DNA of 64,000 nt from Acidimicrobiaceae bacterium (GTDB lineage Bacteria > Actinomycetota > Acidimicrobiia > Acidimicrobiales > RAAP-2): positions 127,587-191,586 of the forward strand of contig DAIDLE010000002.1 in assembly GCA_027449665.1 (NCBI GenBank). The letters run 5' to 3'. The notes below the pieces were generated by a model. The model had not been told where the DNA came from and searched no databases. It saw nothing but the letters and a program-made list of their open reading frames with translations. How positions within the stretch are numbered: the first letter of the stretch is position 1; every line of letters starts with the position of its first letter. The position numbers and the translations under genes are program-made. Below are positions 17,737-49,504 of the stretch, in pieces.

Positions 17737-17976
17737 TTGGGTACCCGGGTAGTGAGCCAGTTGATTGCGTCGTACCAACGCCTCACGAGCGGACGCCCGT
17801 CCCCGTGCCGCTTTTATCCATCGTGCTCGAACTACGCACTGGAGGCGGTATCTATTCACGGAGCTCGGTACGGCGTGTGGCTGGCACTTCGACGCGTGGT
17901 GCGATGTCGGCCCCTTGGCCCGCACGGGATCGATCTAGTCCCCGAAGTCCGACGTAGGACAAGGAGCCCGCAGTAA
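17737..17976 (+). CDS. yidD: membrane protein insertion efficiency factor YidD
   Basis: Motifs CRFYPSCSNYALEA and RCRPLGPHGIDLVP. The start is set at TTG 17737 just after the rnpA stop; GTG 17752 is an alternative. Confidence 0.8.
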   Translation: MGTRVVSQLIASYQRLTSGRPSPCRFYPSCSNYALEAVSIHGARYGVWLALRRVVRCRPLGPHGIDLVPEVRRRTRSPQ

Positions 17977-18920: not shown

Positions 18921-18923
18921 CCC

Positions 18924-19838: not shown

Positions 19839-19850
19839 CTGACTAGTGCC

Positions 19851-20468: not shown

Positions 20469-20484
20469 CGTTTCACGTGAAACA
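20469..20484. promoter_or_regulatory. parS centromere-like site (cGTTTCACGTGAAACa)
   Basis: 15/16 match to the palindromic parS consensus TGTTTCACGTGAAACA; begins 1 nt after the rsmG stop. Confidence 0.8.
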
Positions 20485-20562
20485 TGGCTGATTGCACTGA
20501 ACGCGTTCCGATAATCGAGTTACCAACGAGGCTGCAGCGTCTCCGTGCGACAGCAGTCGAAT

Positions 20563-20578
20563 GTTTCACGTGAAACAC
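20563..20578. promoter_or_regulatory. parS centromere-like site (TGTTTCACGTGAAACA)
   Basis: Perfect 16-bp palindrome identical to the canonical parS. Confidence 0.9.
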
Positions 20579-20717
20579 TGACGAATTGAAGCATGCCAAT
20601 CAAAATCCTCAGATGAGTGAAACGCTAGTCCAGCGTCAATCATGCTTAGGGTAAACACCGTCCGGTAAACATCCTCAGCCCTTGTACGCAACCGCAGTGA
20701 CGGACGTACGGTCTCGT

Positions 20718-21002
20718 TTAGCGTGAATAGTCGTGACCGTCGGCGTCTCCGTTATTTTGACTACGCTCGCGGATCCGTACCGCAACGAAGTCCGGCATGA
20801 TGGCACTCGCGTAAAGCTCCTTGCCTTCAGTGTCCAGAGACTGTCGACGTCCTTTGAAGAGCGTCCGTAAAGGCATGCCGCGATTGGAATAGGCAATCCC
20901 AGCGCGCGTATTCCATCGTTCACGGTTCGCTCGGCGATCAGTAACGTTTCGACGATAGTCATGTCGTGTGTCAGTACGAGGTCGGCATGAGTCGTCACGC
21001 AC
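20718..21002 (-). CDS. candidate small basic protein (94 aa), unknown function
   Basis: The GTG start is preceded by GGGAGG plus 5 nt. The product has an Arg-rich N-terminus (RPRTDTRHDYRRNVTDRRANRERW). No family was recognised, and an overlapping 109 aa ORF in another frame cannot be excluded. Confidence 0.25.
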   Translation of the reverse strand: MRDDSCRPRTDTRHDYRRNVTDRRANRERWNTRAGIAYSNRGMPLRTLFKGRRQSLDTEGKELYASAIMPDFVAVRIRERSQNNGDADGHDYSR

Positions 21003-21070
21003 AATTACCTCCCAGGGTCAGCGGGGTGTTGTCGGACATTCCTCTCGGCCAGAAGCGTGGATCCCGACGT

Positions 21071-21226
21071 CTATCTTGGACGCACCTGTTCGAGCTCAGA
21101 CATGTGGTTAGACCGGATCAACCAGTCAAGACGCGCAGGGCTTGGAGATGGGTGAGCGTTACGTAGGCGTACGTCGTGCGACCATGACATCGCCGCCGGG
21201 GCATTCATCAGGAACTCGTTTTCCAT
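21071..21226 (-). CDS. candidate small protein (51 aa), unknown function
   Basis: The ATG is preceded by AGAGGGA plus 7 nt. The product is MENEFLMNAPAAMSWSHDVRLRNAHPSPSPARLDWLIRSNHMSELEQVRPR. It lies 68 nt upstream of the 94 aa candidate on the same strand. Confidence 0.2.
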   Translation of the reverse strand: MENEFLMNAPAAMSWSHDVRLRNAHPSPSPARLDWLIRSNHMSELEQVRPR

Positions 21227-21323
21227 CGCACAGTCCCTCTTGCGGTTACGCTGGCTGGAATCAATGCGTTTGTGACCCCGGCTGCCGGAATACTGAGCCA
21301 GGCGATTCACGGCACGAAGTCGA

Positions 21324-21339
21324 TGTTTCACGTGAAACA
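21324..21339. promoter_or_regulatory. parS centromere-like site (TGTTTCACGTGAAACA)
   Basis: Perfect 16-bp palindrome identical to the canonical parS. Confidence 0.9.
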
Positions 21340-21647
21340 ATCCACCACGGCCTTACTCTGCCGGAATACTGCGAACTGGCCGATCGCAGTTGCGAGGTGT
21401 GACAATAGGCAACACCAGAAAGACCTGCTACGTCGGCGTAGCGTGGGAAAGTGGCTGTCGAAGCCGTACCGTGAGTCTCTCAGTGTATGACCCTACAATT
21501 CCCCCCGGAAGGACATGGACACATGCTCGTTGATGGTGTGACCGACATTGTGGGTGGAAATCGTTGAGTTGAGAAAGCAGCACTTCGCCTCAGTCGAGTG
21601 ACGTAATAAGCTCTCGGTAGTGGCGAGGTTTCTCGTGTAGCACTGAA

Positions 21648-21663
21648 TGTTTCACGTGAAACA
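21648..21663. promoter_or_regulatory. parS centromere-like site (TGTTTCACGTGAAACA)
   Basis: Perfect 16-bp palindrome, extended to the 18-bp ATGTTTCACGTGAAACAT. Confidence 0.9.
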
Positions 21664-21790
21664 TGCGGCAGGCGATGATGGGATGATCCCGTTGGAACCG
21701 ATCTTCCTGGCTATAACTCTCAATGAATGAAAGGATATTGCTAACGTGTGTTCGTCAGTTGGTAGTGGTAACCGCGGTGTGCACGATCAA

Positions 21791-21806
21791 TGTTTCACGT
21801 GAAACA
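21791..21806. promoter_or_regulatory. parS centromere-like site (TGTTTCACGTGAAACA)
   Basis: Perfect 16-bp palindrome, extended to 18 bp; lies 87 nt upstream of the parA ORF start. Confidence 0.9.
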
Positions 21807-21892
21807 TGGGTACTTGACGGCTTGAACAAAACAGAGTTGAATGGCAGGGGACTGGTGGGCCCCTCGCAGATCCTTAGTGCAGGAAGAGGCTT

Positions 21893-22666
21893 ATGGCGGA
21901 TGATGGTGCGATGAGAATTTTCGCCGTGGCCAACCAAAAGGGTGGGGTTGGTAAGACAACCACCACGACATCGCTAGGGGCGGCACTCGCGCAAAGCGAT
22001 AAGCGTGTCCTTGTGGTTGACCTGGATCCTCAGGGGAACGCCACGACCGGCCTCGGCGTCGACGGGAGAAAATTCGAGCGGTCGGTCTACGACGTACTGC
22101 TGAACGACGTCCCCATGGTGGACATCGTTGAACCAACTGGCTTCAACAACCTCTTTGTTGCACCCGCTACGCTTGATCTGGCCGGCGTTGAACAAGAGCT
22201 CACCTCGGTTATTTCTCGCGAGCTTCGACTGAAGCGAGCACTCGCGTCCGTTGACGGGGAGTTTGACTACATCTTCATTGACTGTCCCCCATCATTGGGA
22301 CTCATCACCATTAACGCGTTCGCAGCGGCAACGGAGATCATGGTTCCAGTTCAAACGGAGTTTTACGCACTCGAAGGACTCACCCAGTTGCAACGAATCG
22401 TTGACTTGGTTCAGCGCAATCTCAATCCAACATTACGAATTTCGAAGGTTGTCTTGACGATGTACGACTCACGCAATACGCTTTCCATCGATGTGGCCGC
22501 CGAGGTCCGGCGACACTTTCCCGAGGAGTTATGTCGGACGGTTATTCCTCGGACGGTCCGACTGGCTGAGGCACCATCATTCGGACAGCCCATTACGTAC
22601 TTCGATCCAAATTCGAAGGGTGCCAAGTCATATCGCGCACTAGCGGAGGAGATTATGAATGGCTAG
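21893..22666 (+). CDS. parA: chromosome partitioning ATPase ParA/Soj
   Basis: Deviant Walker A motif NQKGGVGKTTTT. ATG 21911 (MRIFAV...) is an alternative start. Confidence 0.95.
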   Translation: MADDGAMRIFAVANQKGGVGKTTTTTSLGAALAQSDKRVLVVDLDPQGNATTGLGVDGRKFERSVYDVLLNDVPMVDIVEPTGFNNLFVAPATLDLAGVEQELTSVISRELRLKRALASVDGEFDYIFIDCPPSLGLITINAFAAATEIMVPVQTEFYALEGLTQLQRIVDLVQRNLNPTLRISKVVLTMYDSRNTLSIDVAAEVRRHFPEELCRTVIPRTVRLAEAPSFGQPITYFDPNSKGAKSYRALAEEIMNG

Positions 22667-23588
22667 GAAACCCGGCTTAGGCAAGGGATTGGGCGCACTG
22701 ATTCCTGACACGGTGGACTCAACCGTAGAGCACGACGATGTTGATGTGGGCGGACCGCTACGACGAATACCGGTCGCGGCAATCCGTCCCAATCAGTTTC
22801 AACCGCGCAAAGCTTTTAATGACGATAGTCTTCACGCTCTAGCATCGTCAGTCCGTGAACTCGGCGTGTTGCAGCCATTAATCGTCCGCCCTGTTGAAGG
22901 TGAAGATGGCGTATTCGAGCTCATTGCGGGAGAACGTCGCTGGCGAGCCGCCGCGATCGCCGGTCTCGAAACCGTTCCGGTGCTTGTCCAAGTCGACGTT
23001 AACGATCGTCTCTCACTTGAACAGGCCGTGGTGGAGAATTTGCACCGCGTCGACTTGCACTCATTGGAAGAGGCCGCTGCGTACCAGCAGCTTATCGACG
23101 AGTTTGATTTAACTCACGAACAAGTTGCGCAACGGGTCGGTAAGAGCCGAGCAAATATTACGAACACATTACGACTTCTACAACTAGGTGAAGCTGCACA
23201 GGCGGCCCTGGTAAGTGGCGATATAACGGCGGGTCACGCCCGTTCACTACTGGCGATCTCCGATCCCGATGCGCAAGCGGTGATGGTGGCGAGGGTCATC
23301 AAGAATGAACTCTCGGTGCGGGCTACCGAAGAAGCGGTTAAGGCGTTTCTCGAGCCCAAGCCCGTCGTGGTTGATGAGCCAGCGTTACGCGAGGTGTCGG
23401 GTGCTCCGCGCCTTCGACCCGTGCCGGACGCGAGCGTCGCCGAACTCGAGCATCTGCTTGAGGACTACCTCAGCACACGGGTCCACGTGGACCTGAAGGG
23501 CCGAAATGGTAGGATTATCATTGATTTTGCCGATCTCGACGATCTAGAGCGGCTCTATATCGCTATTTCGCAGGCGAAGCAACCTTGA
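22659..23588 (+). CDS. parB: chromosome partitioning protein ParB/Spo0J
   Basis: ParB box LIAGERRWRAA and an HTH segment THEQVAQRVGKSRANITNTLRLL. It overlaps the parA stop by 8 nt. Confidence 0.95.
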   Translation: MARKPGLGKGLGALIPDTVDSTVEHDDVDVGGPLRRIPVAAIRPNQFQPRKAFNDDSLHALASSVRELGVLQPLIVRPVEGEDGVFELIAGERRWRAAAIAGLETVPVLVQVDVNDRLSLEQAVVENLHRVDLHSLEEAAAYQQLIDEFDLTHEQVAQRVGKSRANITNTLRLLQLGEAAQAALVSGDITAGHARSLLAISDPDAQAVMVARVIKNELSVRATEEAVKAFLEPKPVVVDEPALREVSGAPRLRPVPDASVAELEHLLEDYLSTRVHVDLKGRNGRIIIDFADLDDLERLYIAISQAKQP

Positions 23589-23590
23589 AC

Positions 23591-23620
23591 CTTCAACATA
23601 ACCCTTACGTTGAGGTTTTC
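23591..23620 (+). terminator. possible intrinsic terminator after parB
   Basis: The stem pairs CCT(T)CAAC (23591-23598) with GTTGAGG (23610-23616), giving 7 bp with one bulge and an 11 nt loop. TTTT follows at 23617-23620. Confidence 0.35.
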
Positions 23621-23717
23621 CCCAACTTGTGGATGAAGTTGTGGGTTACGGTGACTACAACCTAAAAATGGCGGAAATTCCCTAGTATTACGGCTCTGCG
23701 GTGAGCATGGGAAATGC

Positions 23718-24656
23718 CTAGTTGTGGAGAACTTTTGTCACAAGGGAGCAAATAACGGTTGCGATGGTCTCAAGTTGGCCGGCGTGGTGACCGTGTTCGA
23801 TGTGGAGCGTCGTCATCTTCGTCTCGCGAAGCAAGGGAAGAGCCATTCCCGTCACCTCCACCCGTGGCAAGTCACAGGAGTTGGCCAGCTCTGACGCAAT
23901 TGCACTCGCCAACTGCTCGCCTCGACGTGAATGTGACCGGTAACTTGCCCAGTAGTGCAAGTGGATACCGTTGATTGACTCGTTGAGCTCAAAGGAGAGA
24001 ACGAGACCGGCGTTGGCAGTGTTGGCTGACGCGGCGACCTCATTCGCGTCGCCGACCACCGTGCGACGCAGTTCCGCAGGTCCCATCCACGAGCTCGACA
24101 CCGCGTCCGCTAGTGCCGTGTCGCCGACCACGACGACCAAGTTGGTGGTGAACTCGTTAAAGCCAGCCCGGTCACGAGCGTCGGTGACCAGGTGTCGATC
24201 GGGAGCAATGGACGTCATGCGCGATAACTCGAGGAGTGTGGCCCGCGTCAGCGTTCCGCTCGGTTCGAGAGCGCGGTTGCGTTGAAAATCCGTTAGGGCG
24301 CCGTCGAGCAACGCGCCGAAGATTCCATCGATGCGACCAGGGTCAAAGCCGAGTTGCGCTAGTCGTACCTGTAGCTCCGCGACGTCGTCACCTCGCTGAT
24401 GGGGCCGCGTGAGGTAGAGGAGGCGATCGCCGAGGTGCCAACCGGCCTCAACCAGTCGAGCCCACGTGGTGGCGTCGACGTCACCGGTGATTGGTAGGCC
24501 TCGCGAACGCTGGAACGCCTCGACCACGGCAGCCGTGGCGTCGCCGAAGGATGCCAAGTCGTTGGTCAGTACTGCGTAACCGATACGTCGCAGTCGCTCG
24601 TGCAGCTCCTGGACGCGCGGACCGGAGTCGCCCCGTTGGAGTGAGCTCGTGATCAG
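23718..24656 (-). CDS. CwlM-like protein: two PG_binding_1 domains plus an Amidase_3-like C-terminal domain
   Basis: Two LGxxPGxIDGxFG / GLPxTGxVD type peptidoglycan-binding repeats are followed by an amidase-like domain. The gene sits after trxA, as cwlM does in mycobacteria. The start is uncertain: the ORF-track TTG is at 24557, but the first PG-binding domain continues upstream (see findings). Confidence 0.7.
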   Translation of the reverse strand: MITSSLQRGDSGPRVQELHERLRRIGYAVLTNDLASFGDATAAVVEAFQRSRGLPITGDVDATTWARLVEAGWHLGDRLLYLTRPHQRGDDVAELQVRLAQLGFDPGRIDGIFGALLDGALTDFQRNRALEPSGTLTRATLLELSRMTSIAPDRHLVTDARDRAGFNEFTTNLVVVVGDTALADAVSSSWMGPAELRRTVVGDANEVAASANTANAGLVLSFELNESINGIHLHYWASYRSHSRRGEQLASAIASELANSCDLPRVEVTGMALPLLRETKMTTLHIEHGHHAGQLETIATVICSLVTKVLHN

Positions 24657-38637: not shown

Positions 38638-38759
38638 GCCACGCACACCGAGAATCAGTGACACGCGCCGACGCGGGTGCGCTCGCTGGTGCCTCCGTGA
38701 AATCACGAGGTCGCGACCCCGTGGTGCCCCGCTACCAATCCCGGTACCTCGGGCAGACC

Positions 38760-39755
38760 ATGGATGTGGTACCGGGATGTGGAGGTGGCGCAGTGACGAA
38801 CGTGGTAGCGCGGGTTGATCGCCTCGGTCTCGTCGGTTCCGGGATTCGTGATTGGGGCGTCAAGGCCCTCGAGCGGCGTCGTCGCACGCTCCAGATCATT
38901 CTTGGTTTCGTGTGGCTGATCGACGCAGCCCTGCAGTTCCAGCCCTACATGTTCACCAGGGCCTTCGTAACCGGTGCGCTGACGCCGACGGCGTCGGGGA
39001 ATCCCTGGCTGCTCTACCGGCCAATGATCTGGGCCGACAGTTTCATGGCGCACGACATTGCGTGGTGGAACGTGCTCTTCGCTACCATCCAATTGGCGAT
39101 CGCGATCGGACTCTTCTACCGACCCATGGTGCGTTGGGCGCTCGGACTGTCGGTGGTCTGGGGCGTAGCGGTGTGGTGGTTCGCCGAAGGCTTCGGTGGC
39201 ATCTTCACGGGCTCGTCGCCGCTCTCGGGCGAGCCAGGAGCCGTCGCGCTCTACGTGGTCGCGGCCGTGCTGGTGTGGCCGACGTCGGGTCGCGGCGCCG
39301 CGACCTCGGTAGCCGAGCGCAGCCCGTGGGGACGCGGCGCTGTGGCGCTGTGGATCGTCCTGTGGGGGAACTTCACCGTTTACCTGCTCACCCCGTCCAA
39401 TCGGTCGGCCCAGGGCCTGCGTTCGCTGATCGCGGGCATGGGTGCGGGCGAGCCGGGCTGGATTCAGTCCCTCGATCGGGGACTCGCGAACCTGGTGAGT
39501 GGGCGTGGCGTGGTGATCTCGGTGTTGCTCGCCGTGGTGTGCGCGGGTATCGCGGTTGGCGTACTCGTTCCGTCACTGACGCGCGCCGCGGTGGTCGCCG
39601 CCGTCGTCGTTGCGGCCGTCATCTGGCTCACCCAGGACTTCGGCGGCGTGCTCACGTCCCAGGGGACCGACGTCAACTCCGGCCCGCTGATCGCCCTGCT
39701 CGCGCTGGCGTACTGGCCGATGATCTCCGACCGAGCGCAGTCACCGTCGAACTGA
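38760..39755 (+). CDS. integral membrane protein, unknown function
   Basis: Multiple hydrophobic helices (ILGFVWLIDAALQF, LFATIQLAIAIGLFY, VVWGVAVWWFAEGFGG and others). The start is set at ATG 38760 because the upstream part of the ORF overlaps dnaB. Confidence 0.55.
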   Translation: MDVVPGCGGGAVTNVVARVDRLGLVGSGIRDWGVKALERRRRTLQIILGFVWLIDAALQFQPYMFTRAFVTGALTPTASGNPWLLYRPMIWADSFMAHDIAWWNVLFATIQLAIAIGLFYRPMVRWALGLSVVWGVAVWWFAEGFGGIFTGSSPLSGEPGAVALYVVAAVLVWPTSGRGAATSVAERSPWGRGAVALWIVLWGNFTVYLLTPSNRSAQGLRSLIAGMGAGEPGWIQSLDRGLANLVSGRGVVISVLLAVVCAGIAVGVLVPSLTRAAVVAAVVVAAVIWLTQDFGGVLTSQGTDVNSGPLIALLALAYWPMISDRAQSPSN

Positions 39756-39794: not shown

Positions 39795-41216
39795 CTAGCG
39801 ACCCAATGGCCGGGCGTCGACCGGTACCCGGTGCAGGGGTACCGTTGCGTCAACGGTGGTGCCCGAGCCGATCGACGAGGTGACCTCGCAGCGGCCATCG
39901 AGCAGGTTCGCGCGTTCGCGCATGCTCAAGATGCCCAAGTGGCTGCCGCCGATCAGTGCGACGCGGTCGAGGTCGAACCCGGTGCCGTCGTCGACGATGG
40001 TCACGCGGGCGGTGTCGGCGTCGTAGTGAATCGAGACGACGAGACGGGCGGCTTGGGCGTGACGAACGGCGTTGCGAACGGCCTCTTGGACGATTCGAAA
40101 TAGTCCGACTTCGGATTCGGGCGATCCCGAGGCGACCTCGCCGGTCACGACGAAGTCGGTCACCAGACCTTCGTCGACTTCGAGATCGACGAGCAGGCCA
40201 CGAACGGCGGCGACGAGTCCGTGCTGGTCCAGGCCCGCGGGGTGCAGACCGCGGGTCACGTCGCGCAGGTGGCCAACGACGTTCAGCAGCTCGTCGCGCA
40301 CGGCCCCGAACTGCTCGTAGCCGGCGTCGTCGTCGGGCGAGCCCAAGGTCTCGAGTCGTCTCGCCAGCTGCAAGAGCCGCTGCAGGGGATCGTCGTGTAT
40401 CTCTCGCGCGATGCGTCGTCGCTCGTCTTCTTGTGCGCGCAGGACCTCCATTGCCCAGGCGCGCGCCTCGCGCTCGGAGCGGTACTCTTCGGTCACGTCC
40501 TCGAGGACGACCTGACGCATGGGCCCGAGCGCGCTGGGCTCGAGGTTGGAGACTGAAAGCCGGAACGTTCGCTCGTCGCCGTCCACGCTCATCGACAGCT
40601 GCGTGGCCCGGCCGTCGGCCACGTCGGCGCTGGCGAGTCCGATGAGATCGGCCACGGAGCGTCCGAGCACGTCGCCCCAGATGCGCTGCGCGGCCGGATT
40701 GGCCTCGTGGACCACGCCAGCCGGGTCGATCAGCACGATCGGCGACGCGTTGGCGTCAAAGAGGCGATGGTAGTGGATCTCGGCGGCGCGACGTTCCGCT
40801 TCGGCGACCTCCGCGCGCGCCCGCTCGAGGTGAGCGCGTTCGATCTCGAGTCCGACGAACAGGGCGACGACGAACACCACCGAGAGCTGGACCAGGTCTT
40901 GGGCGTAGTGTCCCCGATCGTCGGGCAAGAGGACGTCAGGCAGCCACAAGATGATCGCCCACACGGTGGTCGCCGCCGACCCCGACAGGCCGTAGCGCAG
41001 GGCGGCGTAGCCCACGGGAATCAGCAGCAGATCGATCGGCACCCCGTAGGGCAGCACGCTGCCCTTGAGCAGGTTCTGGGTGTCGACGATGACGTGGATG
41101 ACTGCCCAGAAGACGATCATCGACTGCACCGCCCAGAAGGCGCGGTCGCGTATCGGCGGATGCAGCGCCCGTACCAGGATCTGGTGGATCGGGATGCGGG
41201 AGTTGTCGGCGTTCAC
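39795..41216 (-). CDS. sensor histidine kinase (multi-TM N-terminus, PAS-like, HisKA_3, HATPase_c)
   Basis: H-box EDERRRIAREIHDDPLQRL and ATPase motifs VRNAVRHA, DDGTGF and GSHLGILSMRERA. The GTG start forms a GTGA overlap with the stop of the upstream response regulator. Confidence 0.85.
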   Translation of the reverse strand: MNADNSRIPIHQILVRALHPPIRDRAFWAVQSMIVFWAVIHVIVDTQNLLKGSVLPYGVPIDLLLIPVGYAALRYGLSGSAATTVWAIILWLPDVLLPDDRGHYAQDLVQLSVVFVVALFVGLEIERAHLERARAEVAEAERRAAEIHYHRLFDANASPIVLIDPAGVVHEANPAAQRIWGDVLGRSVADLIGLASADVADGRATQLSMSVDGDERTFRLSVSNLEPSALGPMRQVVLEDVTEEYRSEREARAWAMEVLRAQEDERRRIAREIHDDPLQRLLQLARRLETLGSPDDDAGYEQFGAVRDELLNVVGHLRDVTRGLHPAGLDQHGLVAAVRGLLVDLEVDEGLVTDFVVTGEVASGSPESEVGLFRIVQEAVRNAVRHAQAARLVVSIHYDADTARVTIVDDGTGFDLDRVALIGGSHLGILSMRERANLLDGRCEVTSSIGSGTTVDATVPLHRVPVDARPLGR

Positions 41217-41887
41217 TTCGTGGGGTGGGGCGAGGCGAGGTGGTGCTCGATGGCGAAGATCGTGGCCTCGGTACGCGAGCGAACGCCGAGCTTGTTGAGT
41301 ATCGCCGAGACGTAGCTCTCGATGGTTCGCAGTCCAATGCCGAGCTCGAGGGCGATCTCCTTGTTCGAGCGGCCCCGCACGAGTGCGGCGATGACGTCGA
41401 GCTCGCGGGCGGTCAGCCGTCGGATCCACTCATCCTCGGGTTGCTGGTGGCGTCCGGCGAGGCGGTGCGAGAGTGTGCCATCGATCACGGTGCCGCCGAA
41501 GGCGACGGTTCGCGCCGCGGCAACGAACTCCGCGGCGCTCGCGGTCTTGAGCAGGTAGCCGCCAGCGCCCGCCGCGAAGGCTTCGGAAAAGTAGACGTAG
41601 TCGTCGTGGGCCGAGAGCATCAGGCAGCGAACCGGCAGATTCTCGGCGATGACGCCGCGCACGATGTCGACGCCGCTGCCGTCGGGAAGCTCGACGTCGA
41701 TCACCAGCAGGTCGGGGCGAAGGCGCCGCGCTGCGGCCAGGGCTTCGGCGACCGAGCCCACCTCGTCGACGACCACGACGTCGGGGTCGCGCTCGAGCAT
41801 GCGACGCGTTCCCTGGCGAACGACCTCGTGGTCGTCGACGACGATCACGGTAATGGGCGTTTGCGCAGCCGCATCGGAGTCGGACAC
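41213..41887 (-). CDS. NarL/LuxR-family response regulator
   Basis: Receiver domain (VIVVDDHEVV...LLVIDVELPDGSG...KTASA) plus a LuxR HTH (LTARELDVIAALVRGRSNKEIALELGIGLRTIESYVSAILNKLG). Confidence 0.9.
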   Translation of the reverse strand: MSDSDAAAQTPITVIVVDDHEVVRQGTRRMLERDPDVVVVDEVGSVAEALAAARRLRPDLLVIDVELPDGSGVDIVRGVIAENLPVRCLMLSAHDDYVYFSEAFAAGAGGYLLKTASAAEFVAAARTVAFGGTVIDGTLSHRLAGRHQQPEDEWIRRLTARELDVIAALVRGRSNKEIALELGIGLRTIESYVSAILNKLGVRSRTEATIFAIEHHLASPHPTK

Positions 41888-41922: not shown

Positions 41923-41937
41923 CCGTGGTTCCACGGG
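41923..41937. promoter_or_regulatory. inverted-repeat operator candidate CCGTGGTTCCACGGG (copy 1)
   Basis: A half-site, 2 bp spacer, half-site palindrome lying 36 nt upstream of the response-regulator start codon. An identical 15-mer recurs at 42103. Confidence 0.4.
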
Positions 41938-42101: not shown

Positions 42102-42117
42102 CCCGTGGTTCCACGGG
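42102..42117. promoter_or_regulatory. inverted-repeat operator candidate CCCGTGGTTCCACGGG (copy 2, perfect 7-2-7)
   Basis: A perfect 16-bp palindrome lying 100 nt upstream of the first cupredoxin gene ATG. Confidence 0.4.
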
Positions 42118-42216: not shown

Positions 42217-42780
42217 ATGAGTAGTGGTTCGACCGTAGTGAGTCAAGGTCCCCGCGAGACCGAGTCCCACCGGTTGCGTGGCCTCTTGACACTGGTGACG
42301 GGCATCGTGCTCGTCGCGGCGGTGGTCTTCGCCATCACGGCCGGCGTCGGCGCGATCTGGCACAAGGTGACCGCGACGCCCGCGACGAGCGCGGCGCCGG
42401 CGAGCGCCGCCACGCCAGCCGCGGACACCGCGGCGGTGCAGATCAAACTCGCGGTGAACCCGCCGCCGCTCGGTGGCGTGAAGGGGTCCGACGGACTCAT
42501 CCACGACGCCTTCGTTCCCGCGTCGTTCACCATGACGGTTGGCACCACCTACGACGTCACGATCTACAACTACGACACCCAGTCTCACTCGTGGATGTCG
42601 CCCTCGCTCAACGTCGACGCGGTCGCGCCGGCGGGCAGCGCGACGTCGCCGTCGGTGACGCACTTCACGATTACGCCCAAGTCGGCGGGAACCTTCCAGT
42701 GGTTCTGCGCCTTGCCGTGTGACAAGTGGGCCATGGCCCACAACGGCTTCATGCGCGGCTACGTCACCGTCAAGGCGTGA
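42217..42780 (+). CDS. membrane-anchored COX2/CuA-like cupredoxin (paralog 1)
   Basis: The ATG follows GGGAGGAGCAGTG. An N-terminal anchor (LLTLVTGIVLVAAVVFAITAGVGAIW) precedes a cupredoxin C-terminus with SHSW...FQWFCALPCDKWAMAHNGFMRGYVTV, i.e. H...Cx3Cx6Hx3M. Confidence 0.75.
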   Translation: MSSGSTVVSQGPRETESHRLRGLLTLVTGIVLVAAVVFAITAGVGAIWHKVTATPATSAAPASAATPAADTAAVQIKLAVNPPPLGGVKGSDGLIHDAFVPASFTMTVGTTYDVTIYNYDTQSHSWMSPSLNVDAVAPAGSATSPSVTHFTITPKSAGTFQWFCALPCDKWAMAHNGFMRGYVTVKA

Positions 42781-42851
42781 GACCCGCCCCGCCGACGAGC
42801 CAGTTACGGACCACCAGTGATGAGCAGTACTCAAACAAAAGGAGATAAGTA

Positions 42852-43415
42852 ATGAAGCACCCCCTCACCAAGACCGTTGGCCTGATGTTGGCCGTCGCAC
42901 CACTGGTCGCCACTGGCGTGGTAAATGGCGCGAGCGCCGCCACGTCGATTCACGTGACCGAGGTGATGCAAATCCTGACCACGGGAACGTTGGCGGGTAG
43001 CGGTCAGCAGCCCAAGATCACGAACTCGTCGTGGACCGTGAAGAAGGGCGAGACCGTCACCGTGAAGATCGTCAGCTTTGACGACGGCACCGCGCCGTTG
43101 ATGGGCCAGTACATGAAGTACGCGAAGGTCATGGGCACCACCAACGGCAAGGAGACCGTAGCGGGCAAGTCGGTCACCAACGTGTCCGACATCAACGTCG
43201 CCCACACGTTCACGATCAAGGGCCTCGGTTTCAACATGCCGATCCCCGCCGCGCCGACCGGCAAGTCCGTCACCGTCGTGGCGACGTTCGTGCCCACCAA
43301 GACTGGCACGTTCGTCTGGAACTGCTTCGCCCCGTGCGGCACCGGCACGACCGGTATGGGCGGCGCGATGAAGACCATGGGCTGGATGACCGGCAAGGTA
43401 AAGGTCATCTCGTGA
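42852..43415 (+). CDS. secreted COX2/CuA-like cupredoxin (paralog 2)
   Basis: Strong RBS AAAAGGAG and a Sec signal peptide ending GASAA. The sequence NVAHTFTIKGLGFNMPIPAAP...GTFVWNCFAPCGTGTTGMGGAMKTMGWM aligns by eye to the COX2 CuA segment. Confidence 0.8.
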   Translation: MKHPLTKTVGLMLAVAPLVATGVVNGASAATSIHVTEVMQILTTGTLAGSGQQPKITNSSWTVKKGETVTVKIVSFDDGTAPLMGQYMKYAKVMGTTNGKETVAGKSVTNVSDINVAHTFTIKGLGFNMPIPAAPTGKSVTVVATFVPTKTGTFVWNCFAPCGTGTTGMGGAMKTMGWMTGKVKVIS

Positions 43416-44152
43416 GTGCCCGCCGAGCCACGAACGCGGGCGAGCCGGGGCGCGCTGACGGCCCCGGACCGCTCGCGCGGCTCGGCGCGGTCGACCCGCT
43501 CGAGCGACTCGGCCGCCTGAGCTGGCGTCGCCCCGTTCGAGCCTCGCGCAACGTCGGCCTCGTCGCCGTCTCGCTCGTCGGGATCCTCCTCGGGCTGGCC
43601 GTCACGGTGGCCCTAGTCGGCGGCATCGCGTCGGGGGTCGTTCGCGCGACACGCCCTGGCGCGCCGGCGACCCCGGCGGTGCGCGGCCACGTCACCGAGG
43701 TTATGAAGATCCTCACGACGGGGAACCTGCCGGGAACGGGGAATCAGCCCCAGTACACGAACGCCGACTGGACCGTCCACGTGAATGAGCGCGTGACGGT
43801 GAAGATCATCAGTTTCGACGACGGCACCGCGCCACTGATGGGATCCCAGATGATGTACGACCACGTCGTTGGCTCAACGACCGGCGACGAGCTGGTGGCC
43901 GGTCGGCCCGTGTCCTCGGTGTCTGACACCAACGTGGCGCACACGTTCACGGTGGTGGGACTCACGTTCAACATGCCGATCCCGGCCGCGCCGACGGGCA
44001 AGTCGGTGACGGTCGAGGCGACGTTCGTGCCGACCAAGACCGGAACCTTTACGTGGCAGTGCTACGCCCCGTGCGGCGCCGGCACGAACGGGATGGGTGG
44101 GGCAATGGCGACGATGAAGTGGATGGAAGGACAAATCAAGGTGATCGCATGA
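43412..44152 (+). CDS. membrane-anchored COX2/CuA-like cupredoxin (paralog 3)
   Basis: A GTGA overlap joins it to paralog 2. It has an N-terminal anchor (VGLVAVSLVGILLGLAVTVALVGG). Its mature part is closely similar to paralog 2 (HVTEVMKILTTGNLPGTGNQP..., TWQCYAPCGAGTNGMGGAMATMKWM). Confidence 0.8.
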   Translation: MSARRATNAGEPGRADGPGPLARLGAVDPLERLGRLSWRRPVRASRNVGLVAVSLVGILLGLAVTVALVGGIASGVVRATRPGAPATPAVRGHVTEVMKILTTGNLPGTGNQPQYTNADWTVHVNERVTVKIISFDDGTAPLMGSQMMYDHVVGSTTGDELVAGRPVSSVSDTNVAHTFTVVGLTFNMPIPAAPTGKSVTVEATFVPTKTGTFTWQCYAPCGAGTNGMGGAMATMKWMEGQIKVIA

Positions 44153-45003
44153 CGACGACACACGACGACGAAACTCGGATGGACGATGGCGAGCGCGACG
44201 ACCTCACCGTCGCCGCGGTGACAATTGGACGGCGCGGGCTGCTGCGAGCCGCGGCTCTCGGCGGTATCGGCTTGGGCGTGCTCGGGGCGCTGACCGAAAC
44301 GGTGGCCGCCGCGTCGCAGCCGGCGACGACGACGCCGTCGAGCCCGACCAAGCAGTGGTGCATGATTATCGATCTGCGTCTCTGCAATGGCTGCAAGCTC
44401 TGCACGACCGCCTGCCAGACGGCCCACTACCTGCACGAGGACCAGACCTGGATGAATGTCTACACGATGCAGAACGCCGCGGGCGAGGACTACTTCATGC
44501 CGCGGCCGTGCATGATGTGCGAAGACCCGGCGTGCGTGCCGGTCTGTCCGGTCGGCGCGAACTTTCGCACTGACGAGGGCCTGGTGCTGGTGGACCAGAA
44601 CAAGTGCATCGGCACGCGCATCTGCATGAACGCCTGTCCCTACGACGCGCGCTACTTCAACTGGACGGCGCCGCTGCCCGCGCCGCGCCAGCCATTCAAG
44701 CAGGAGCCGGAGTGGCCGGTGCCCCAAGTCATTGGCACGGTCGGCAAGTGCATCAACTGCGCGGCGATGCTGCCGTCGGGCCAGCTGCCCGAGTGCGTCA
44801 GCAACTGCCCGATGGGCGTGCTCTACTTCGGCGACCTGACCTCGGACGTGGCGGTGAACGGCATGGGTGCCACCGTCAAGATCTCGACCTTCCTCGCCGA
44901 GAACGACGCGGTCGTCTTCAAGGAAGAGTACGGCACCCACCCGCGGGTCTACTACATCCCGGGCCACGGACAGGACTTGAACAACAACCCGAGCGCGTCG
45001 TGA
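44149..45003 (+). CDS. Tat-exported four-cluster iron-sulfur protein (NrfC/PsrB/DmsB/NosG family)
   Basis: An ATGA overlap joins it to paralog 3, and the Tat motif is IGRRGLLRAAALGG. The Cys groups are CNGCKLCTTAC, CMMCEDPACVPVCP, CIGTRICMNACP and CINCAAMLPSGQLPECVSNCP. Confidence 0.9.
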   Translation: MTTTHDDETRMDDGERDDLTVAAVTIGRRGLLRAAALGGIGLGVLGALTETVAAASQPATTTPSSPTKQWCMIIDLRLCNGCKLCTTACQTAHYLHEDQTWMNVYTMQNAAGEDYFMPRPCMMCEDPACVPVCPVGANFRTDEGLVLVDQNKCIGTRICMNACPYDARYFNWTAPLPAPRQPFKQEPEWPVPQVIGTVGKCINCAAMLPSGQLPECVSNCPMGVLYFGDLTSDVAVNGMGATVKISTFLAENDAVVFKEEYGTHPRVYYIPGHGQDLNNNPSAS

Positions 45004-45025
45004 CGCGCCGAACAGGAGAGATTCG

Positions 45026-46429
45026 ATGACTGACGTTCTAGATCCCGTCTCGACGGGCCGCGCGAAGCCAGGTAACGCCGACCTGCGCGCTGTCGCAATG
45101 CGGCCGGTGCTCGAGACCCCGGGGTGGTGGTGGCCCGCCGTCGTGGTGCTCGGTGCCGTCGTGGTGCTCGGCGTCGTGGCCTGGGTCTACCAGGTGGCCA
45201 ACGGACTCGGCGTCGCCGGTTACGGCGACGGCGCGTTCTGGGCGATCTACGAGGCGAACCTCGTCGCCTTCATCGGCGTGAGCTACGGCGGGGCGGTGGT
45301 CTCGGCGATCTTGCGTCTCACGCACGCCGAGTGGCGCGCGCCCCTCACGCGCATCGCCGAGGCGACGGCGCTCGTGACCCTGCCTATCGGGATGGTCTTC
45401 ATCATCCCCCACCTGGGGAGCCCGAGCCGGGTCTGGGAGCTCGTCTGGCCCACCTACTGGAACCTCTCCTCGCCGATCCTGTGGGACTTCTTTGCGGTGA
45501 GCACCTACCTGCTCGCCACCATCGTCTTCTTCTACCTCCCGCTGATCCCTGACGCGGCGATCGCCCTCGAGCGTTTCGACGTCGAGCCGACGAGCGGACG
45601 CCTGCGCGTTCGCCAGTCGCTCTACCGGGTGTTGGTCGGTCGCTTCGGGGGCACGCCCTACGAGCGTCGCCGGCTGAACGGCGCGATCGGCCTCGTCGCG
45701 ATCATGATCATCCCGATGGCGGTGTCGGTGCACTCGGTGCTGTCCTTCGCCTTCGCGTCATCCTCGCGCGCCGGGTACTTGGAGACGATCCTGCCGGTCT
45801 ACTTCGTGGTCGCGGCGCTCTACTCGGGCGTGGCTCTCGTCGTGCTGACCGTCGCCGCGTCGCGCCGGCTCTTCCACCTCGAGGCCTTCATCACCCCGCG
45901 CCACTTCGTGCGGCTGGGCTTCTTGATGATCGCCTTCGGCGCGGCCTACCTGTACCTCACCTTCACCGAGTACCTGATTGACGGGTACTCGGGCACCACG
46001 GGCGCCGCGGCGTGGGTGTACCAGATCGTCGCCGGTCGCTACGCGATTCCGTTCTGGCTGTACTTCTTCGCGGGAGGGGTTATCCCCCTGGTCATCATGG
46101 CGTTTCGCCGGCTGCGCACCACCACGGGCGTGGTCGTCGCGTCAACGCTGGTGGTGCTCTCGCTCTGGATCAAGCGGCTCGTGATCGTCATCCCCCCGGC
46201 GACCGAGCCGCTTGTGAACTCGCCGCTGAAGAGCGCGGGGGTGCTCGCGGGGAACTGGGGCACGTACCACTTCACGTGGGTGCCGATCTCGATCACCGTG
46301 GCGGCCACCGCGGCCATCCCGCTGCTCTTGCTCGTCGTGTTCCGCTTCGTGCCCATTCTGTCCATGGCCGAGATCGAGGAGATCGACGAGGCGCACGAGC
46401 GCGCAACGGTGCAGGAGGTGGGAGCGTGA
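45026..46429 (+). CDS. NrfD/PsrC/ActC/NosH-family integral membrane quinone-interacting subunit
   Basis: 467 aa with about 10 hydrophobic segments counted by eye. It lies immediately downstream of the NrfC-like gene, and the ATG follows an AGGAGAG RBS. Confidence 0.85.
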   Translation: MTDVLDPVSTGRAKPGNADLRAVAMRPVLETPGWWWPAVVVLGAVVVLGVVAWVYQVANGLGVAGYGDGAFWAIYEANLVAFIGVSYGGAVVSAILRLTHAEWRAPLTRIAEATALVTLPIGMVFIIPHLGSPSRVWELVWPTYWNLSSPILWDFFAVSTYLLATIVFFYLPLIPDAAIALERFDVEPTSGRLRVRQSLYRVLVGRFGGTPYERRRLNGAIGLVAIMIIPMAVSVHSVLSFAFASSSRAGYLETILPVYFVVAALYSGVALVVLTVAASRRLFHLEAFITPRHFVRLGFLMIAFGAAYLYLTFTEYLIDGYSGTTGAAAWVYQIVAGRYAIPFWLYFFAGGVIPLVIMAFRRLRTTTGVVVASTLVVLSLWIKRLVIVIPPATEPLVNSPLKSAGVLAGNWGTYHFTWVPISITVAATAAIPLLLLVVFRFVPILSMAEIEEIDEAHERATVQEVGA

Positions 46430-46995
46430 TGTTCACGAAGCTTCGTTCCACGAGCGTACGCGGTGCGCTCGGCGCGCTCGGCGGCGTGCTGCTCTTCAGC
46501 GTCGCGGCGGCGGCGCTGCCGGCGGCGGCGGCGATGGGCGCCACGCTCTCGCTGACGTCAGCGACCCCAGCCAGTCAGCGCGGCGTCGAACTCTCGGCGC
46601 AGGTGAACGCCGGTTCCACGCCGCTGAGCGGGGTCACGGTCAACTTCTACGTGCACCTCGACGAGTTCTCGGGCGCGCCAGAGCTGCTCATCGGCACGGC
46701 GAACACCGGTCCCACGGGCGACGCAACCGTGACGTACCAGCCAACGTGGGCCGGCACGCAGCGTTTCGTGGCGACGGCCGTCGACGCGACGGGGGCGCCG
46801 CTGGCCACGTCGGCGCTGACGGTCCAGGCGGCGAGGACTGACCCGTTCGCGGGTCCCGTGGAGAGCCTGCGTCCCGATGGCCTCATCGGTCGCTGGGTGG
46901 TCGTGGTCCTGCTCGCGCTCGTCATCAGTGTCTGGATCACCTTGCTCGCCGTGGTGGTTCGCGTTCAGCAGGGTCCGGTCGAAGCCGCGCGGTAG
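46429..46995 (+). CDS. signal-peptide, Ig-like, C-terminally anchored protein
   Basis: A GTGATG overlap joins it to the NrfD-like stop. The signal peptide reads LLFSVAAAALPAAAAMGA. The beta-rich middle (GVTVNFYVHLDEF...GDATVTYQPTWAGTQRFVATAVD) has no Cys, and the C-terminal helix is WVVVVLLALVISVWITLLAVVV. Confidence 0.6.
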   Translation: MFTKLRSTSVRGALGALGGVLLFSVAAAALPAAAAMGATLSLTSATPASQRGVELSAQVNAGSTPLSGVTVNFYVHLDEFSGAPELLIGTANTGPTGDATVTYQPTWAGTQRFVATAVDATGAPLATSALTVQAARTDPFAGPVESLRPDGLIGRWVVVVLLALVISVWITLLAVVVRVQQGPVEAAR

Positions 46996-47042: not shown

Positions 47043-47921
47043 GTGACCGACCACGCCCTCGCCGCGGTGAGCCTGTCGAAGCACTTCGGTACGACGCGGG
47101 CGGTCGACGAGGTGGACCTTACGCTAGACGCCGGCGAAGTGGTCGGCTTCCTCGGGCCCAACGGGGCCGGCAAGACGACCACGCTGCGCCTGCTGCTTGG
47201 GCTGCTGCGTCCGACGTCGGGCGCCGCAACGGTGCTCGGGCACCGCGCGGGGTCGCGCGAGGCCCGTCGCCACGTCGCCTACGTGCCCGGCGACGTGGCG
47301 CTGTGGCCTCAGCTCACGGGTCTCGAGGTGATCACGCTGCTCGGGTCGCTGCACGGACGCCTCGACTCCGCGTACCGCGATCGCCTCGTGGAGGCCTTCG
47401 ATCTCGACCCCGACAAGCGGGTGCGGGCCTACTCGAAGGGTAATCGCCAGAAAGTCGCACTGATCAGTGCCTTCGCGACCCGTGCCGAGGTCCTGCTCCT
47501 CGACGAGCCGACGGCCGGGCTCGACCCGTTGATGGAGCGCGTCTTTCGCGCGTGCGTCGTCGAGGCGCAGGACCGGGGCCAGGCGGTCCTGCTGAGCTCG
47601 CACGTGCTCGCCGAGGTGCAACACCTCTGTTCGCGCGTTGCGATGATCCGCCAGGGACGACTGGTCACGGTGGCGGCGATCAGCGAGCTTCGCCGCGTCG
47701 CCGGCGTCGAGCTCGACATCGCCGGGACCTTCGAGGACCTGAGTGCGGTGGCCGGCGTCAGCGTCGTCGCGGTCGACAGCGACGAGACGCGGGTGCGCGT
47801 CAACGGTCCTCTCGAGCCGCTGCTCGGCGCACTGGCGCGCGGTCAGGTGACGTCGCTGCGCACTCGCGAGGCGAGCCTCGAGGAGATCTTCCTCTCGTTC
47901 TACGACCCCGCGCACGAGTAG
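47043..47921 (+). CDS. ABC transporter ATP-binding protein (ABC-2/DrrA/NosF-like)
   Basis: Motifs GPNGAGKTT, YSKGNRQKVAL and LLLDEPTAGLD. Confidence 0.9.
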   Translation: MTDHALAAVSLSKHFGTTRAVDEVDLTLDAGEVVGFLGPNGAGKTTTLRLLLGLLRPTSGAATVLGHRAGSREARRHVAYVPGDVALWPQLTGLEVITLLGSLHGRLDSAYRDRLVEAFDLDPDKRVRAYSKGNRQKVALISAFATRAEVLLLDEPTAGLDPLMERVFRACVVEAQDRGQAVLLSSHVLAEVQHLCSRVAMIRQGRLVTVAAISELRRVAGVELDIAGTFEDLSAVAGVSVVAVDSDETRVRVNGPLEPLLGALARGQVTSLRTREASLEEIFLSFYDPAHE

Positions 47922-47923
47922 TC

Positions 47924-49504
47924 GTGGGTCCGCGAACCGCCGTCGGCGTGACGTGGCGCCAGCTTCGTCTCTCGACGGCGGTGATGACGTCACTCGTGGT
48001 CGCGATGGTCGCGCTCGGCGTGGCGAGCTACGACCTCAGCGGCGGAGCACCCGCGATGGTCGGCACGCTCGCGCTCGTGCGCAACCCGGCCTTCCGTGCG
48101 CTGTACGGCAACTTCAGCACGCTGGACACGGCGGGTGCCTTCGTGCTGTGGAAGCTCGGCCTCGTCGTGACGCTCGCGGTGGCTCTCTGGGGGGCGCTCG
48201 CCGCGACGCGCGTGACGCGCGGGGCCGAGGACGTGGGCACCTGGGACCTACTCGTCACGGGGACGGCGGGGCGCGGCGCCATCGTCGGCCAGAGCATGGC
48301 CGTGCTCGCCGTCATGGGCGTCGCCGTGGGCACCGCGGTCTTCGCGACGTTCGCGCTGAGCGGTCAGCGCCTCGCCGACAGTGCCCTCTACGGAGCCGGC
48401 GTCGTCGGGCTCGTCTGGTGCGCGCAGGCGGTTGGCGTGGCGGCCGCCCAGGTGCTGGCGCCTCGGCGCTCGGCGTCCCAGGGGGCGCTCGCGGTGGTGG
48501 GCGTCGCGTACCTCGCCCGGATGGTCGCCGACGCGTCTACGAATGGCGCGTGGCTGCGCGACGCGACGCCCTTTGGCTGGCTCGAGAACCTCGGCGCTTT
48601 CCAGCGCGCCGAGCCAATCTGGCTCGTCGCGCTGCTCGTCGGGCCGGCACTCGCCGTTACGGCACTCCTGCCGCTCGCGCGCCGGCGCGACGTGGGGCTC
48701 GCCCAGTGGACAAGGTCCGACCGGGCCGCGGCGCGCTCGGGCCTGCTGCGCACGCCGTGGCGATTCGCGTGGCGCGAGCTCGCCAGCACCATCGCGGTGT
48801 GGCTCATCGTGACCGCGGTGGTCGGCCTCGTGATCGGGTACCTCACGAACGCACTGGTCGTCTTTAGCCGCGGTGACCCGTCTCTCGGCCGACTGCTCGC
48901 GCGCTGGCACCTGGCGCTGCTCGCGAGCGTTCACGGCTTCGTCGGGGAGATCGGCGCGACGCTCGCCTTCGGCATCAGCTTCTTCGTCGTCTCGGCGGTG
49001 GCGACCGTCGGTGGCGACGTCAGCGCCGGGCGACTGGACCTGCCACTTGGCTACGGGGCCGGTCGCCGCTCGTGGCTGGCGGCGACCGTCGTGGCCACCG
49101 CCGGCGCGACGGTGCTGATCGCGCTCGTGACCGCGAGCGCGACCTGGATCGGCGTGGGTGCGGGCGGCTCGTCACTGGCCTTCGGCGCGGCCCTCGGCGC
49201 GATGCTGAACGCGATCTCGATCGCGCCGCTCGTTCTGGGCGCGACCGCGCTGGCCGTGTCGCTCGCGCCGCGGGTGGCCCAGGTCGTGCTCGCCGCGCTA
49301 CTCGCGGTCAGCTACTTGACCGCTGTTCTTGGCCCGGCGATGCACTGGCCGCGGCTGATCGTGGAGGCGTCGCTGTACCACTACGTGCGCTTGGTTCCCG
49401 CCGAAGCGCCGAACTGGCGCGCGACGGTCGTCTTCGCGGTGCTCGGCGCGGCGGCCTTCGCGGGCGGCCTCAGTCGATTTCGGCGGGCCGATCTCGTCGC
49501 GTGA
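47924..49504 (+). CDS. ABC-2-type transporter permease (large, multi-TM)
   Basis: The GTG start lies 3 nt after the ATPase stop. The product is about 526 aa and hydrophobic throughout. Assignment is by position and hydropathy. Confidence 0.7.
   Translation: MGPRTAVGVTWRQLRLSTAVMTSLVVAMVALGVASYDLSGGAPAMVGTLALVRNPAFRALYGNFSTLDTAGAFVLWKLGLVVTLAVALWGALAATRVTRGAEDVGTWDLLVTGTAGRGAIVGQSMAVLAVMGVAVGTAVFATFALSGQRLADSALYGAGVVGLVWCAQAVGVAAAQVLAPRRSASQGALAVVGVAYLARMVADASTNGAWLRDATPFGWLENLGAFQRAEPIWLVALLVGPALAVTALLPLARRRDVGLAQWTRSDRAAARSGLLRTPWRFAWRELASTIAVWLIVTAVVGLVIGYLTNALVVFSRGDPSLGRLLARWHLALLASVHGFVGEIGATLAFGISFFVVSAVATVGGDVSAGRLDLPLGYGAGRRSWLAATVVATAGATVLIALVTASATWIGVGAGGSSLAFGAALGAMLNAISIAPLVLGATALAVSLAPRVAQVVLAALLAVSYLTAVLGPAMHWPRLIVEASLYHYVRLVPAEAPNWRATVVFAVLGAAAFAGGLSRFRRADLVA

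Follow-up and report, generated by a model that had tools for sequence, protein, structure and literature searches.

A 64-kb stretch of chromosomal DNA from an Acidimicrobiaceae bacterium (contig DAIDLE010000002.1; the whole analysed stretch is called the window throughout) contains an operon of six genes, g1 to g6 (Table 1), which by translation are all intact and lie on the forward strand. We propose, with a probability of about 0.55, that their products form a respiratory membrane complex without haem, which derives from that part of alternative complex III (ACIII) made up of the iron-sulfur (FeS) half of ActB and of ActC. The best-supported model, as far as function can be predicted from sequence, is a quinol:cupredoxin oxidoreductase, in which an ActC-type membrane subunit (g5) and an FeS subunit (g4) would pass electrons to three cupredoxins (g1, g2 and g3). 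An initial annotation of the same DNA had treated the six genes as the whole system. The conserved set proves to be larger and also comprises a polytopic membrane protein encoded at 38721-39755, here termed mem390, a NarL-type two-component system and a palindromic candidate operator.

The membrane protein g5 matches the Pfam family NrfD (PF03916) with 97.4 bits against a cut-off of 25.8 and shows 10 hydrophobic segments by hydropathy. It thus belongs to the NrfD family as defined by a profile match plus 8-10 transmembrane (TM) segments, and the 10-helix NrfD-type protein of the initial annotation is borne out. A family profile built from 21 homologues and searched against all PDB sequences found ACIII subunits only. 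It aligned end to end with ActC of four ACIII structures at 236, 209, 208 and 201 bits (sources: Rhodothermus, with 236 bits and E 7e-69, Flavobacterium, Roseiflexus and Chloroflexus; structures compared: 6F0K, 6BTM, 6LOD and 8K9E), the best alignment covering residues 30-461 of 6f0k_C. ActF was matched weakly, and PsrC gave no match at E<1. We then compared single residues, using the list of ActC quinol-site, channel and gate residues given by Calisto and Pereira (PMC8076601). H139, S164 and D169 of the ActC quinol site correspond to H129, S149 and D154 of g5, all of which are invariant in the family. In the putative proton half-channel on the N side of ActC, the residues S103, R114, R119, E122, Y176, D191 and H247 are identical in g5, and the gate residue R395 is kept as R384.

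The FeS subunit g4 consists of 284 amino acids with 16 cysteines, carries the Tat motif RRGLLRAAA and matches Pfam Fer4_11. Among PDB sequences it finds PsrB (1.6e-30) and residues 783-962 of ActB (2e-20), and its top NCBIfam match is DsrO, whose 166 bits lie under the 200-bit cut-off. Across 79 homologues, 15 of the 16 cysteines are invariant, in the pattern 4+4+3+4. The three-Cys motif CIGTRICMNACPY aligns to CIGTRYCSNNCPY of ActB (CIGTRxCxxxCP); PsrB has a four-Cys version. Because the third motif has three cysteines, as in ActB, g4 likely carries three [4Fe-4S] clusters and one [3Fe-4S] cluster, which amends the four-cluster Tat ferredoxin of the initial annotation in the nature of one cluster and leaves its Tat export and ferredoxin character in place. 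Since g5 resembles ActC end to end and g4 shares the three-Cys motif of ActB, the pair is by homology an ActB(FeS half)/ActC core. Public annotation of these proteins as 'polysulfide reductase NrfD', 'molybdoenzyme membrane anchor' or 'hypothetical protein' is misleading.

The association of this core with cupredoxins recurs in related genomes. When one genome per species was scanned, a g5 relative turned up in 276 genomes; the best 80 loci (g5 identity 50-94%) were analysed for synteny by tblastn, and 40 of them have full flanks. The carriers among these best 80 of 276 are metagenome-assembled genomes (MAGs) of Acidimicrobiia or Actinomycetes together with Ferrimicrobium acidiphilum, the only named cultured carrier, whose g5 homologue (WP_298386235.1) is annotated as 'molybdoenzyme membrane anchor'. 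A g4 gene adjoins g5 upstream in 76/76 loci, a type-A cupredoxin (the type of g2 and g3) is found upstream in 62/64, in 1-3 copies, and g6 lies downstream of g5 in 64/71. Within the 40 full-flank loci, the g1-type cupredoxin occurs in 29, mem390 in 25 and either one in 35, while homologues of the kinase (at most 10 kb from the cluster) and of the regulator are each present in 34. The gene set holds down to about 50% g5 identity, and clustering of all neighbouring open reading frames (ORFs) of the related loci revealed no other recurrent neighbours.

None of the translated products of g1-g6 contains a CxxCH motif, as the initial annotation had stated. We also considered a haem c protein hidden elsewhere in the clusters of the family, and rejected it: CxxCH occurs in 8 of 616 neighbouring ORFs, as a single motif each and at chance level, and no multihaem ORF is among them. 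Genes for a molybdopterin subunit, a haem-copper oxidase or NosZ are absent from the roughly 36 of about 57 candidate window ORFs that were scanned with Pfam. The possibility that the operon is one piece of a divided nos, act or cta locus was likewise dismissed, as no such gene is found among the scanned window ORFs or recurs within 10 kb in the ~80 related loci; nor do these loci sit inside an already characterised complex. Throughout them, cupredoxin genes accompany the NrfC/NrfD-type pair and no haem, molybdopterin, nos, act or cta gene does so, which supports the earlier suggestion that cupredoxins occupy the partner slot.

The cupredoxins themselves fall into two types. The type-A proteins g2 and g3 share 65% identity, and g1 is a distant paralogue whose alignment with g2 includes the metal motif and spans 70 residues at 34% identity (E 4e-5). 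Hydropathy places a TM segment at residues 22-40 of g1, a single TM segment at residues 51-69 of g3 and a signal-like segment at the N-terminus of g2, matching the two membrane anchors and one Sec signal annotated before. Pfam Cupredoxin_1 recognises g1 with 29 bits, slightly over the 27-bit cut-off. For g2 and g3, we obtained weak NCBIfam CoxB and NosZ C-terminal matches only (CoxB E 0.0045-0.09) and no Pfam COX2 match; COX2 matches are seen in 14 of 28 g2/g3 relatives, all below the gathering score (best E 3e-4). The AlphaFold2 model of g2, computed from 28 homologues (predicted local distance difference test (pLDDT) 83.7), is matched by Foldseek to the CuA domains of nitrous oxide reductase (N2OR), to nitrosocyanin, rusticyanin and AcoP, and to COX2 of ba3 oxidase, with probability 1.00 and E values of 3e-5 to 6e-4 against N2OR, COX2 and other cupredoxins. 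Cupredoxin domains of nitrite reductases are also among the top matches. The description of g1-g3 as three paralogous COX2-like cupredoxins therefore holds for the fold, as modelled for g2, and for the paralogy, close in g2/g3 and distant in g1, but not for a COX2 or CoxB match above cut-off.

Ahead of their TM anchor, g3-type proteins have an Arg-rich cytoplasmic segment that is conserved, PLxRLG...DPLxRLGRLSWRRP (N-terminus of g3, window 43412-43560). Its SWRR followed by a hydrophobic stretch might represent an uncleaved Tat-type signal anchor.

The metal site departs from known cupredoxin centres. A type-A family profile matches COX2/CuA domains (CtaC, Thermus CuA) at E ~1e-3, with VAHTF aligned over VIHGF and C-APC-G over C-NQYC-G, and with a variable residue at the position of the second CuA histidine. 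In the 28-sequence type-A alignment, H118, C158, C162, M173 and M179 (g2 numbering) are invariant. An exhaustive hidden Markov model search at E<=1e-10 collected at least 415 type-A clusters (50% identity). Of the 148 best clusters that were examined, 147 lack the canonical C-x3-C-x3-H-x2-M and show W-x-C-x2-[PA]-C-G-x-G...M-x5-M. Measured against the CuA ligand set H-x(n)-C-x3-C-x3-H-x2-M, the family keeps the first His and both Cys without exception and varies at the Met position. The type 1 blue copper set (His, Cys, His, Met) does not fit either, since there is no conserved second His and an extra Cys is conserved. The g1 motif, H..(x)..C-x3-C-x4-M-x5-M, belongs to a conserved family motif, HS/TW...C.[LP]PC..[WF].M...G[FY]M, which offers the same His, Cys2, Met2 set; at the position of the His behind the Cys pair, members of this family have H, T or N. 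A canonical CuA site in g1-g3 is ruled out by the ligand motif, because the second His is missing. By fold and motif, the small proteins are COX2-type cupredoxins with a variant site. 'CuA-like', the term of the initial annotation, thus remains apt for the fold, the first His and both Cys, and fails for the second His and for the two invariant Met.

A site of this composition poses the question whether the proteins carry electrons at all. CupA is a cupredoxin-fold copper chaperone, and g1-g3 may similarly be Cys/Met-rich chaperones or sinks for Cu(I), with the FeS/NrfD pair altering the redox state of metals at the cell surface. The His, Cys2, Met2 ligand set without a second His would suit Cu(I), a cupredoxin of this type is found on its own elsewhere (see below), and many of the carrier MAGs bear sample codes (FK, DBS, YF, TL, MAS and others) that may point to mines or tailings. 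We nevertheless regard a role in copper homeostasis or metal handling as improbable. No gene for CopA, CopZ, CsoR, CopC/D or a multicopper oxidase is linked in the related loci, the regulator is of NarL type with a PAS kinase and not a known copper sensor, and the geometry of the Cys-x3-Cys with its upstream His aligns to the CuA electron-transfer site. That the cupredoxins are obligately linked to an FeS protein with four clusters and to a quinol site argues for respiration instead. A second possibility is that the cupredoxin-fold proteins are the catalytic subunits of a periplasmic reductase or oxidase that acts, for instance, on a compound of sulfur or nitrogen. In that case g4 and g5 would amount to a common NrfCD-type quinol dehydrogenase whose catalytic head is new. 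As a rule, modules of the NrfCD type work for a catalytic subunit (PMC8076601, Table 1), and cupredoxin domains of N2OR and nitrite reductase rank among the best fold matches. However, g1-g3 are single cupredoxin domains of ~150 residues, which leaves no second domain for a catalytic site, and a copy number of 1 to 3 or more per locus fits carriers better. We therefore consider such a catalytic head quite unlikely. Both roles lose ground to electron transfer because copper-homeostasis genes and second domains are absent.

The remaining two membrane-associated proteins are probably structural or accessory. By hydropathy, g6 has a signal and a C-terminal TM anchor; it contains no Cys, and in 61 homologues there is also no conserved His or Met. 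The Cys-free protein with C-terminal anchor of the initial annotation is thereby confirmed, and its 'Ig-like' label is backed by sub-threshold Pfam matches only (Big_1, E 0.012). In at least 14 protein clusters g5 and g6 are fused in one polypeptide of 640-745 amino acids, with g6 at the C-terminus, and we conclude that g6 is probably a structural subunit bound to g5. The fusion proteins (P0059, P0088, P0093 and P0102-P0119, g5 homologues of 640-745 amino acids) represent a more distant branch of the family.

The second protein, mem390, was overlooked in the initial annotation because its gene lies beyond the two-component genes in this window. A homologue was found in 48 of the 80 related loci, and in at least 18, including that of Ferrimicrobium, it sits between the g4 and g5 homologues. 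It is a conserved seventh component of the cluster. No Pfam family matches any of 26 members. As no His or Cys is invariant in the family, mem390 is no haem b protein, and a hidden cytochrome b was discarded as its identity. A second NrfD-like (ActF) subunit was excluded as well, with an hhalign probability of 0.3% against the g5 family. The best PDB fold matches of its AlphaFold2 model (pLDDT 84) are to the membrane domain of vitamin-K gamma-carboxylase and are weak (E 0.14, TM-score 0.45-0.49); from this similarity, membership of the DoxX/HTTM group may be taken as a lead. In one related locus (L038, 5985-7643), a single 552-amino-acid ORF joins a mem390 homologue in frame to a type-A cupredoxin, which could be an assembly or frameshift artefact as it was seen in one MAG only. 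In Kitasatospora, a mem390 homologue adjoins a cupredoxin gene; homologues lacking such a neighbour occur as well, and the protein is also present in Streptomyces and Pseudonocardiaceae. The tight linkage, the g5-g6 fusions and the mem390-cupredoxin fusion speak for the proposed complex.

Expression of the cluster appears to be under dedicated control. The stop codon of the regulator gene overlaps the likely GTG start of the kinase gene (GTGA, 41213-41216). A longer, 544-amino-acid kinase ORF is probably over-extended into an Arg-rich N-terminus that looks non-coding. The sequence CCGTGGTTCCACGG has just two exact copies in the window, both in the stretch that separates the regulator gene from g1. 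Of the 28 CCGTGGTTCCACGG-like sites (at most 1 mismatch) in 65 related loci, 23 lie near the start of the first cluster gene, that is, within ~650 bp from 600 bp upstream to 50 bp inside that gene. Their density is 0.54 per kb there and 0.005 per kb elsewhere, a ~116-fold difference that is uncorrected for the kinship of the loci. The palindrome is probably the operator of the linked NarL/GerE regulator. A scan of the operon for sigma-70 promoters and terminators returned no promoter and one terminator, at chance level.

From these features we derive the following model. Signal peptides, membrane anchors and the Tat motif lead to the prediction that all redox domains lie on the outer face, the same side as the quinol site of ActC. 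Menaquinol would be oxidised at the outward-facing quinol site of g5, and the electrons would run through the g4 chain of three [4Fe-4S] and one [3Fe-4S] clusters along the outer membrane face to the copper centres of the membrane-anchored g1 and g3 and the secreted g2. The cupredoxins would deliver them to a high-potential acceptor, for which the CuA site of an aa3 oxidase or, in acidophiles, soluble Fe(III) are candidates. In this model g6 would be a structural subunit attached to g5, mem390 a further subunit or an assembly factor, and the PAS kinase and NarL-type regulator would set expression via the palindromic operator. Menaquinone has a potential of about -74 mV and cupredoxins range from +150 to +680 mV, so that the quinol-to-copper direction would be downhill. 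The proposed route parallels that from ACIII to auracyanin, since ACIII of Chloroflexota passes electrons to this cupredoxin (PMC10873879).

The main rival to this model is the same complex running in reverse. Here, electrons from Fe(II) at low pH would enter via the cupredoxins and reach menaquinone, driven by the proton motive force through the ActC-like subunit, in order to supply reducing power. The sole named cultured carrier, Ferrimicrobium, is an acidophilic Fe(II) oxidiser (PMC8790237), g5 keeps the putative proton half-channel residues and the gate Arg of ActC, and ACIII has been proposed to act in reverse electron transport in the iron-oxidiser-like electroautotroph Ca. Tenderia (PMC5371394). 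The reverse route would, however, be very steep, with several hundred mV to overcome from cupredoxin to menaquinone via low-potential FeS clusters. PMC8790237 counts Ferrimicrobium among the heterotrophic acidophiles; as an obligate heterotroph, it has little need of reverse flow. The neighbouring ORFs of the related loci also include no linked primary Fe(II) oxidase of the Cyc2 kind. On balance, we consider the reverse direction rather unlikely.

Several points weigh against the quinol:cupredoxin oxidoreductase. Qrc, which has the same FeS/NrfD architecture, runs the opposite way and reduces quinone (PMC8076601); the architecture therefore does not fix the direction, and this point also speaks for reverse flow. 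The quinol-site residue D253 of ActC is replaced by Ala in g5, and a site without one canonical His could be Cu(I)-binding and not redox-active. A type-A cupredoxin stands alone in the Firmicutes MAG GCA_019683835.1 (locus L085, 10001-10591), and other actinomycetes have mem390 homologues outside any such cluster, so not every part is exclusive to the complex. Finally, the copper content, complex formation and activity ascribed to g1-g6 are predictions from sequence. The Firmicutes protein is of the lipoprotein type, belongs to the g2/g3 family (53% identity) and has no NrfC/NrfD genes alongside; its neighbours are genes for an FTR1 iron permease and an iron-dependent repressor.

A more far-reaching interpretation has soluble iron as the partner; we put it forward tentatively and hold it to be doubtful. 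The operon may be the module, long looked for, through which acidophilic Gram-positive Actinobacteria tie iron respiration to quinone. A haem-free, ACIII-derived complex would use cupredoxins as the wires by which electrons leave or enter, with a copper centre of a new kind (His-Cys2-Met2, a CuA derivative without the acid-labile second His). At pH 2 it would connect menaquinone directly with soluble Fe(III)/Fe(II) on the surface of the cell, under the control of a redox-sensing two-component system of its own. Fe(II) oxidation and Fe(III) reduction are both known from cultured acidophilic Acidimicrobiia (PMC8790237), and the literature searched contained no molecular mechanism for either process in Ferrimicrobium. 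The link to acidophiles is given by Ferrimicrobium and by the 'Acidimicrobiaceae' labels of MAGs only, as a literature search brought no confirmation that the MAG sample codes denote acid-mine sites. The Ferrimicrobium acidiphilum cluster offers a concrete, testable candidate for the mechanism of Fe(II) oxidation and Fe(III) reduction. The system is widespread, and since a cultured organism carries it, it is open to experiment.

Table 1. Features of the proposed copper-linked respiratory cluster and its putative control region (positions in the window).
Feature	Position	Strand	Description
mem390	38721-39755	+	polytopic membrane protein; start per 344-amino-acid gene call, longest ORF from 38583
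sensor histidine kinase	39795-41216	-	membrane N-terminus, PAS, HisKA_3, HATPase_c (Pfam)
response regulator, NarL/GerE type	41213-41887	-	Pfam Response_reg and GerE; divergent from operon
palindrome CCGTGGTTCCACGG, copy 1	41923-41936	no strand	candidate operator, divergent promoter region
palindrome CCGTGGTTCCACGG, copy 2	42103-42116	no strand	candidate operator, between regulator gene and g1
g1	42217-42780	+	membrane-anchored type-B cupredoxin
g2	42852-43415	+	secreted type-A cupredoxin with signal peptide
g3	43412-44152	+	type-A cupredoxin, Arg-rich cytoplasmic N-terminus, one TM anchor
g4	44149-45003	+	Tat-exported iron-sulfur subunit, ActB-C-terminal/NrfC type
g5	45026-46429	+	ActC-type NrfD-family quinol-binding membrane subunit, 10 TM helices (predicted)
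g6	46429-46995	+	cofactor-less extracytoplasmic beta-rich domain, C-terminal TM anchor (predicted)

The gene overlaps GTGA, ATGA and GTGATG within the operon are all found where the initial annotation had placed them. An ABC transporter (ATPase and large permease, 47043-49504) begins 47 bp past g6. It is not counted as part of the system, as it is kept with the cluster only in the ~10 closest relatives and thus probably lies outside it. The window covers the chromosomal origin region, with gyrAB, recF, dnaN, dnaA, yidC, murJ and dnaB. Its G+C content dips to 54-57% at ~14000-24000, compared with 65-72% elsewhere. This stretch, which extends to ~23.6 kb and is preceded directly by recF (13249-14331), is probably the origin region and not an island, because dnaN, dnaA and yidC lie within it; two ORFs in it (21893-23588) fall outside the Pfam scan.

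The full-text literature searched contains no description of an NrfD/ActC complex with cupredoxins or of this cluster in Acidimicrobiia, in agreement with the earlier remark that no characterised complex of such composition is known. In a 2021 review, the partners of all NrfD complexes catalogued are haem, molybdopterin or [NiFe] proteins, and the word 'copper' is absent from its text (PMC8076601). Judged by homology, the ActB/ActC core and the cupredoxin fold are of an already known kind; what appears to be new is a modular NrfD/FeS respiratory complex with a new class of partner, together with a new cupredoxin subfamily. If true, a copper-wired NrfD complex would add a new combination of modules to bacterial respiratory chains, and the core of ACIII would be shown to be workable without any cytochrome. 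A Cys pair resembling that of CuA but combined with other terminal ligands would be of direct interest to copper-site chemistry.

How do these proteins compare with known copper carriers? Like rusticyanin, sulfocyanin and AcoP, the cupredoxins described here are predicted to be extracytoplasmic proteins of acidophiles, and rusticyanin and AcoP are among their fold matches. Those carriers are mononuclear His2-Cys-Met proteins, however, and are not encoded with an FeS/NrfD module. The cupredoxins of the cluster resemble the CuA domains of COX2/CtaC and N2OR in their fold, in the first-ligand segment V-x-H-[ST]-F and in a Cys-x3-Cys at the same loop position. They differ in that the second His is gone in nearly all type-A clusters examined, the canonical Met position varies and two downstream Met are invariant.

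Other FeS/NrfD systems provide a second comparison. The NosGH proteins of clade II nos clusters are also an NrfC/NrfD-like pair and are thought to feed a copper enzyme that electrons enter via a CuA cupredoxin domain. In contrast to that system, no nosZ or nos accessory gene was detected among the window ORFs scanned or recurring within 10 kb in the ~80 loci, and each cupredoxin here is a domain on its own. Qrc (QrcABCD), DsrOP and Nhc likewise place a periplasmic FeS protein on a 10-TM NrfD-like quinone subunit, and g4/g5 score below the NCBIfam cut-offs of these families (DsrO 166 vs 200, QrcC 102 vs 400, DsrP 63.5 vs 350). Unlike the present cluster, these systems partner with multihaem cytochromes c; linked haem or HdrDE-like genes were not found in the neighbourhoods of the ~80 related loci.

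Compared with ACIII, the operon lacks the pentahaem ActA and the monohaem ActE, in keeping with the CxxCH-free products and with the absence of multihaem ORFs around related clusters. It also lacks the molybdopterin-like N-terminal half of ActB, of which g4 spans residues 783-962 only, a second, ActF-like NrfD subunit and ActD, and g5 has Ala in place of D253. The cupredoxins are encoded within the operon itself, and two unrelated membrane-associated proteins, g6 and mem390, are added. In turn, g5 aligns with ActC over its full length and keeps the His, Ser and Asp of the quinol site as well as the gate Arg, and g4 aligns with the FeS half of ActB, including CIGTRxCxxxCP, and is, like its counterpart, predicted to be exported by Tat to the outer face. 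As the resemblance of the pair is to ActB/ActC specifically, the initial annotation described the proposed complex fairly when it spoke of a 'copper-based minimal analogue of alternative complex III'.

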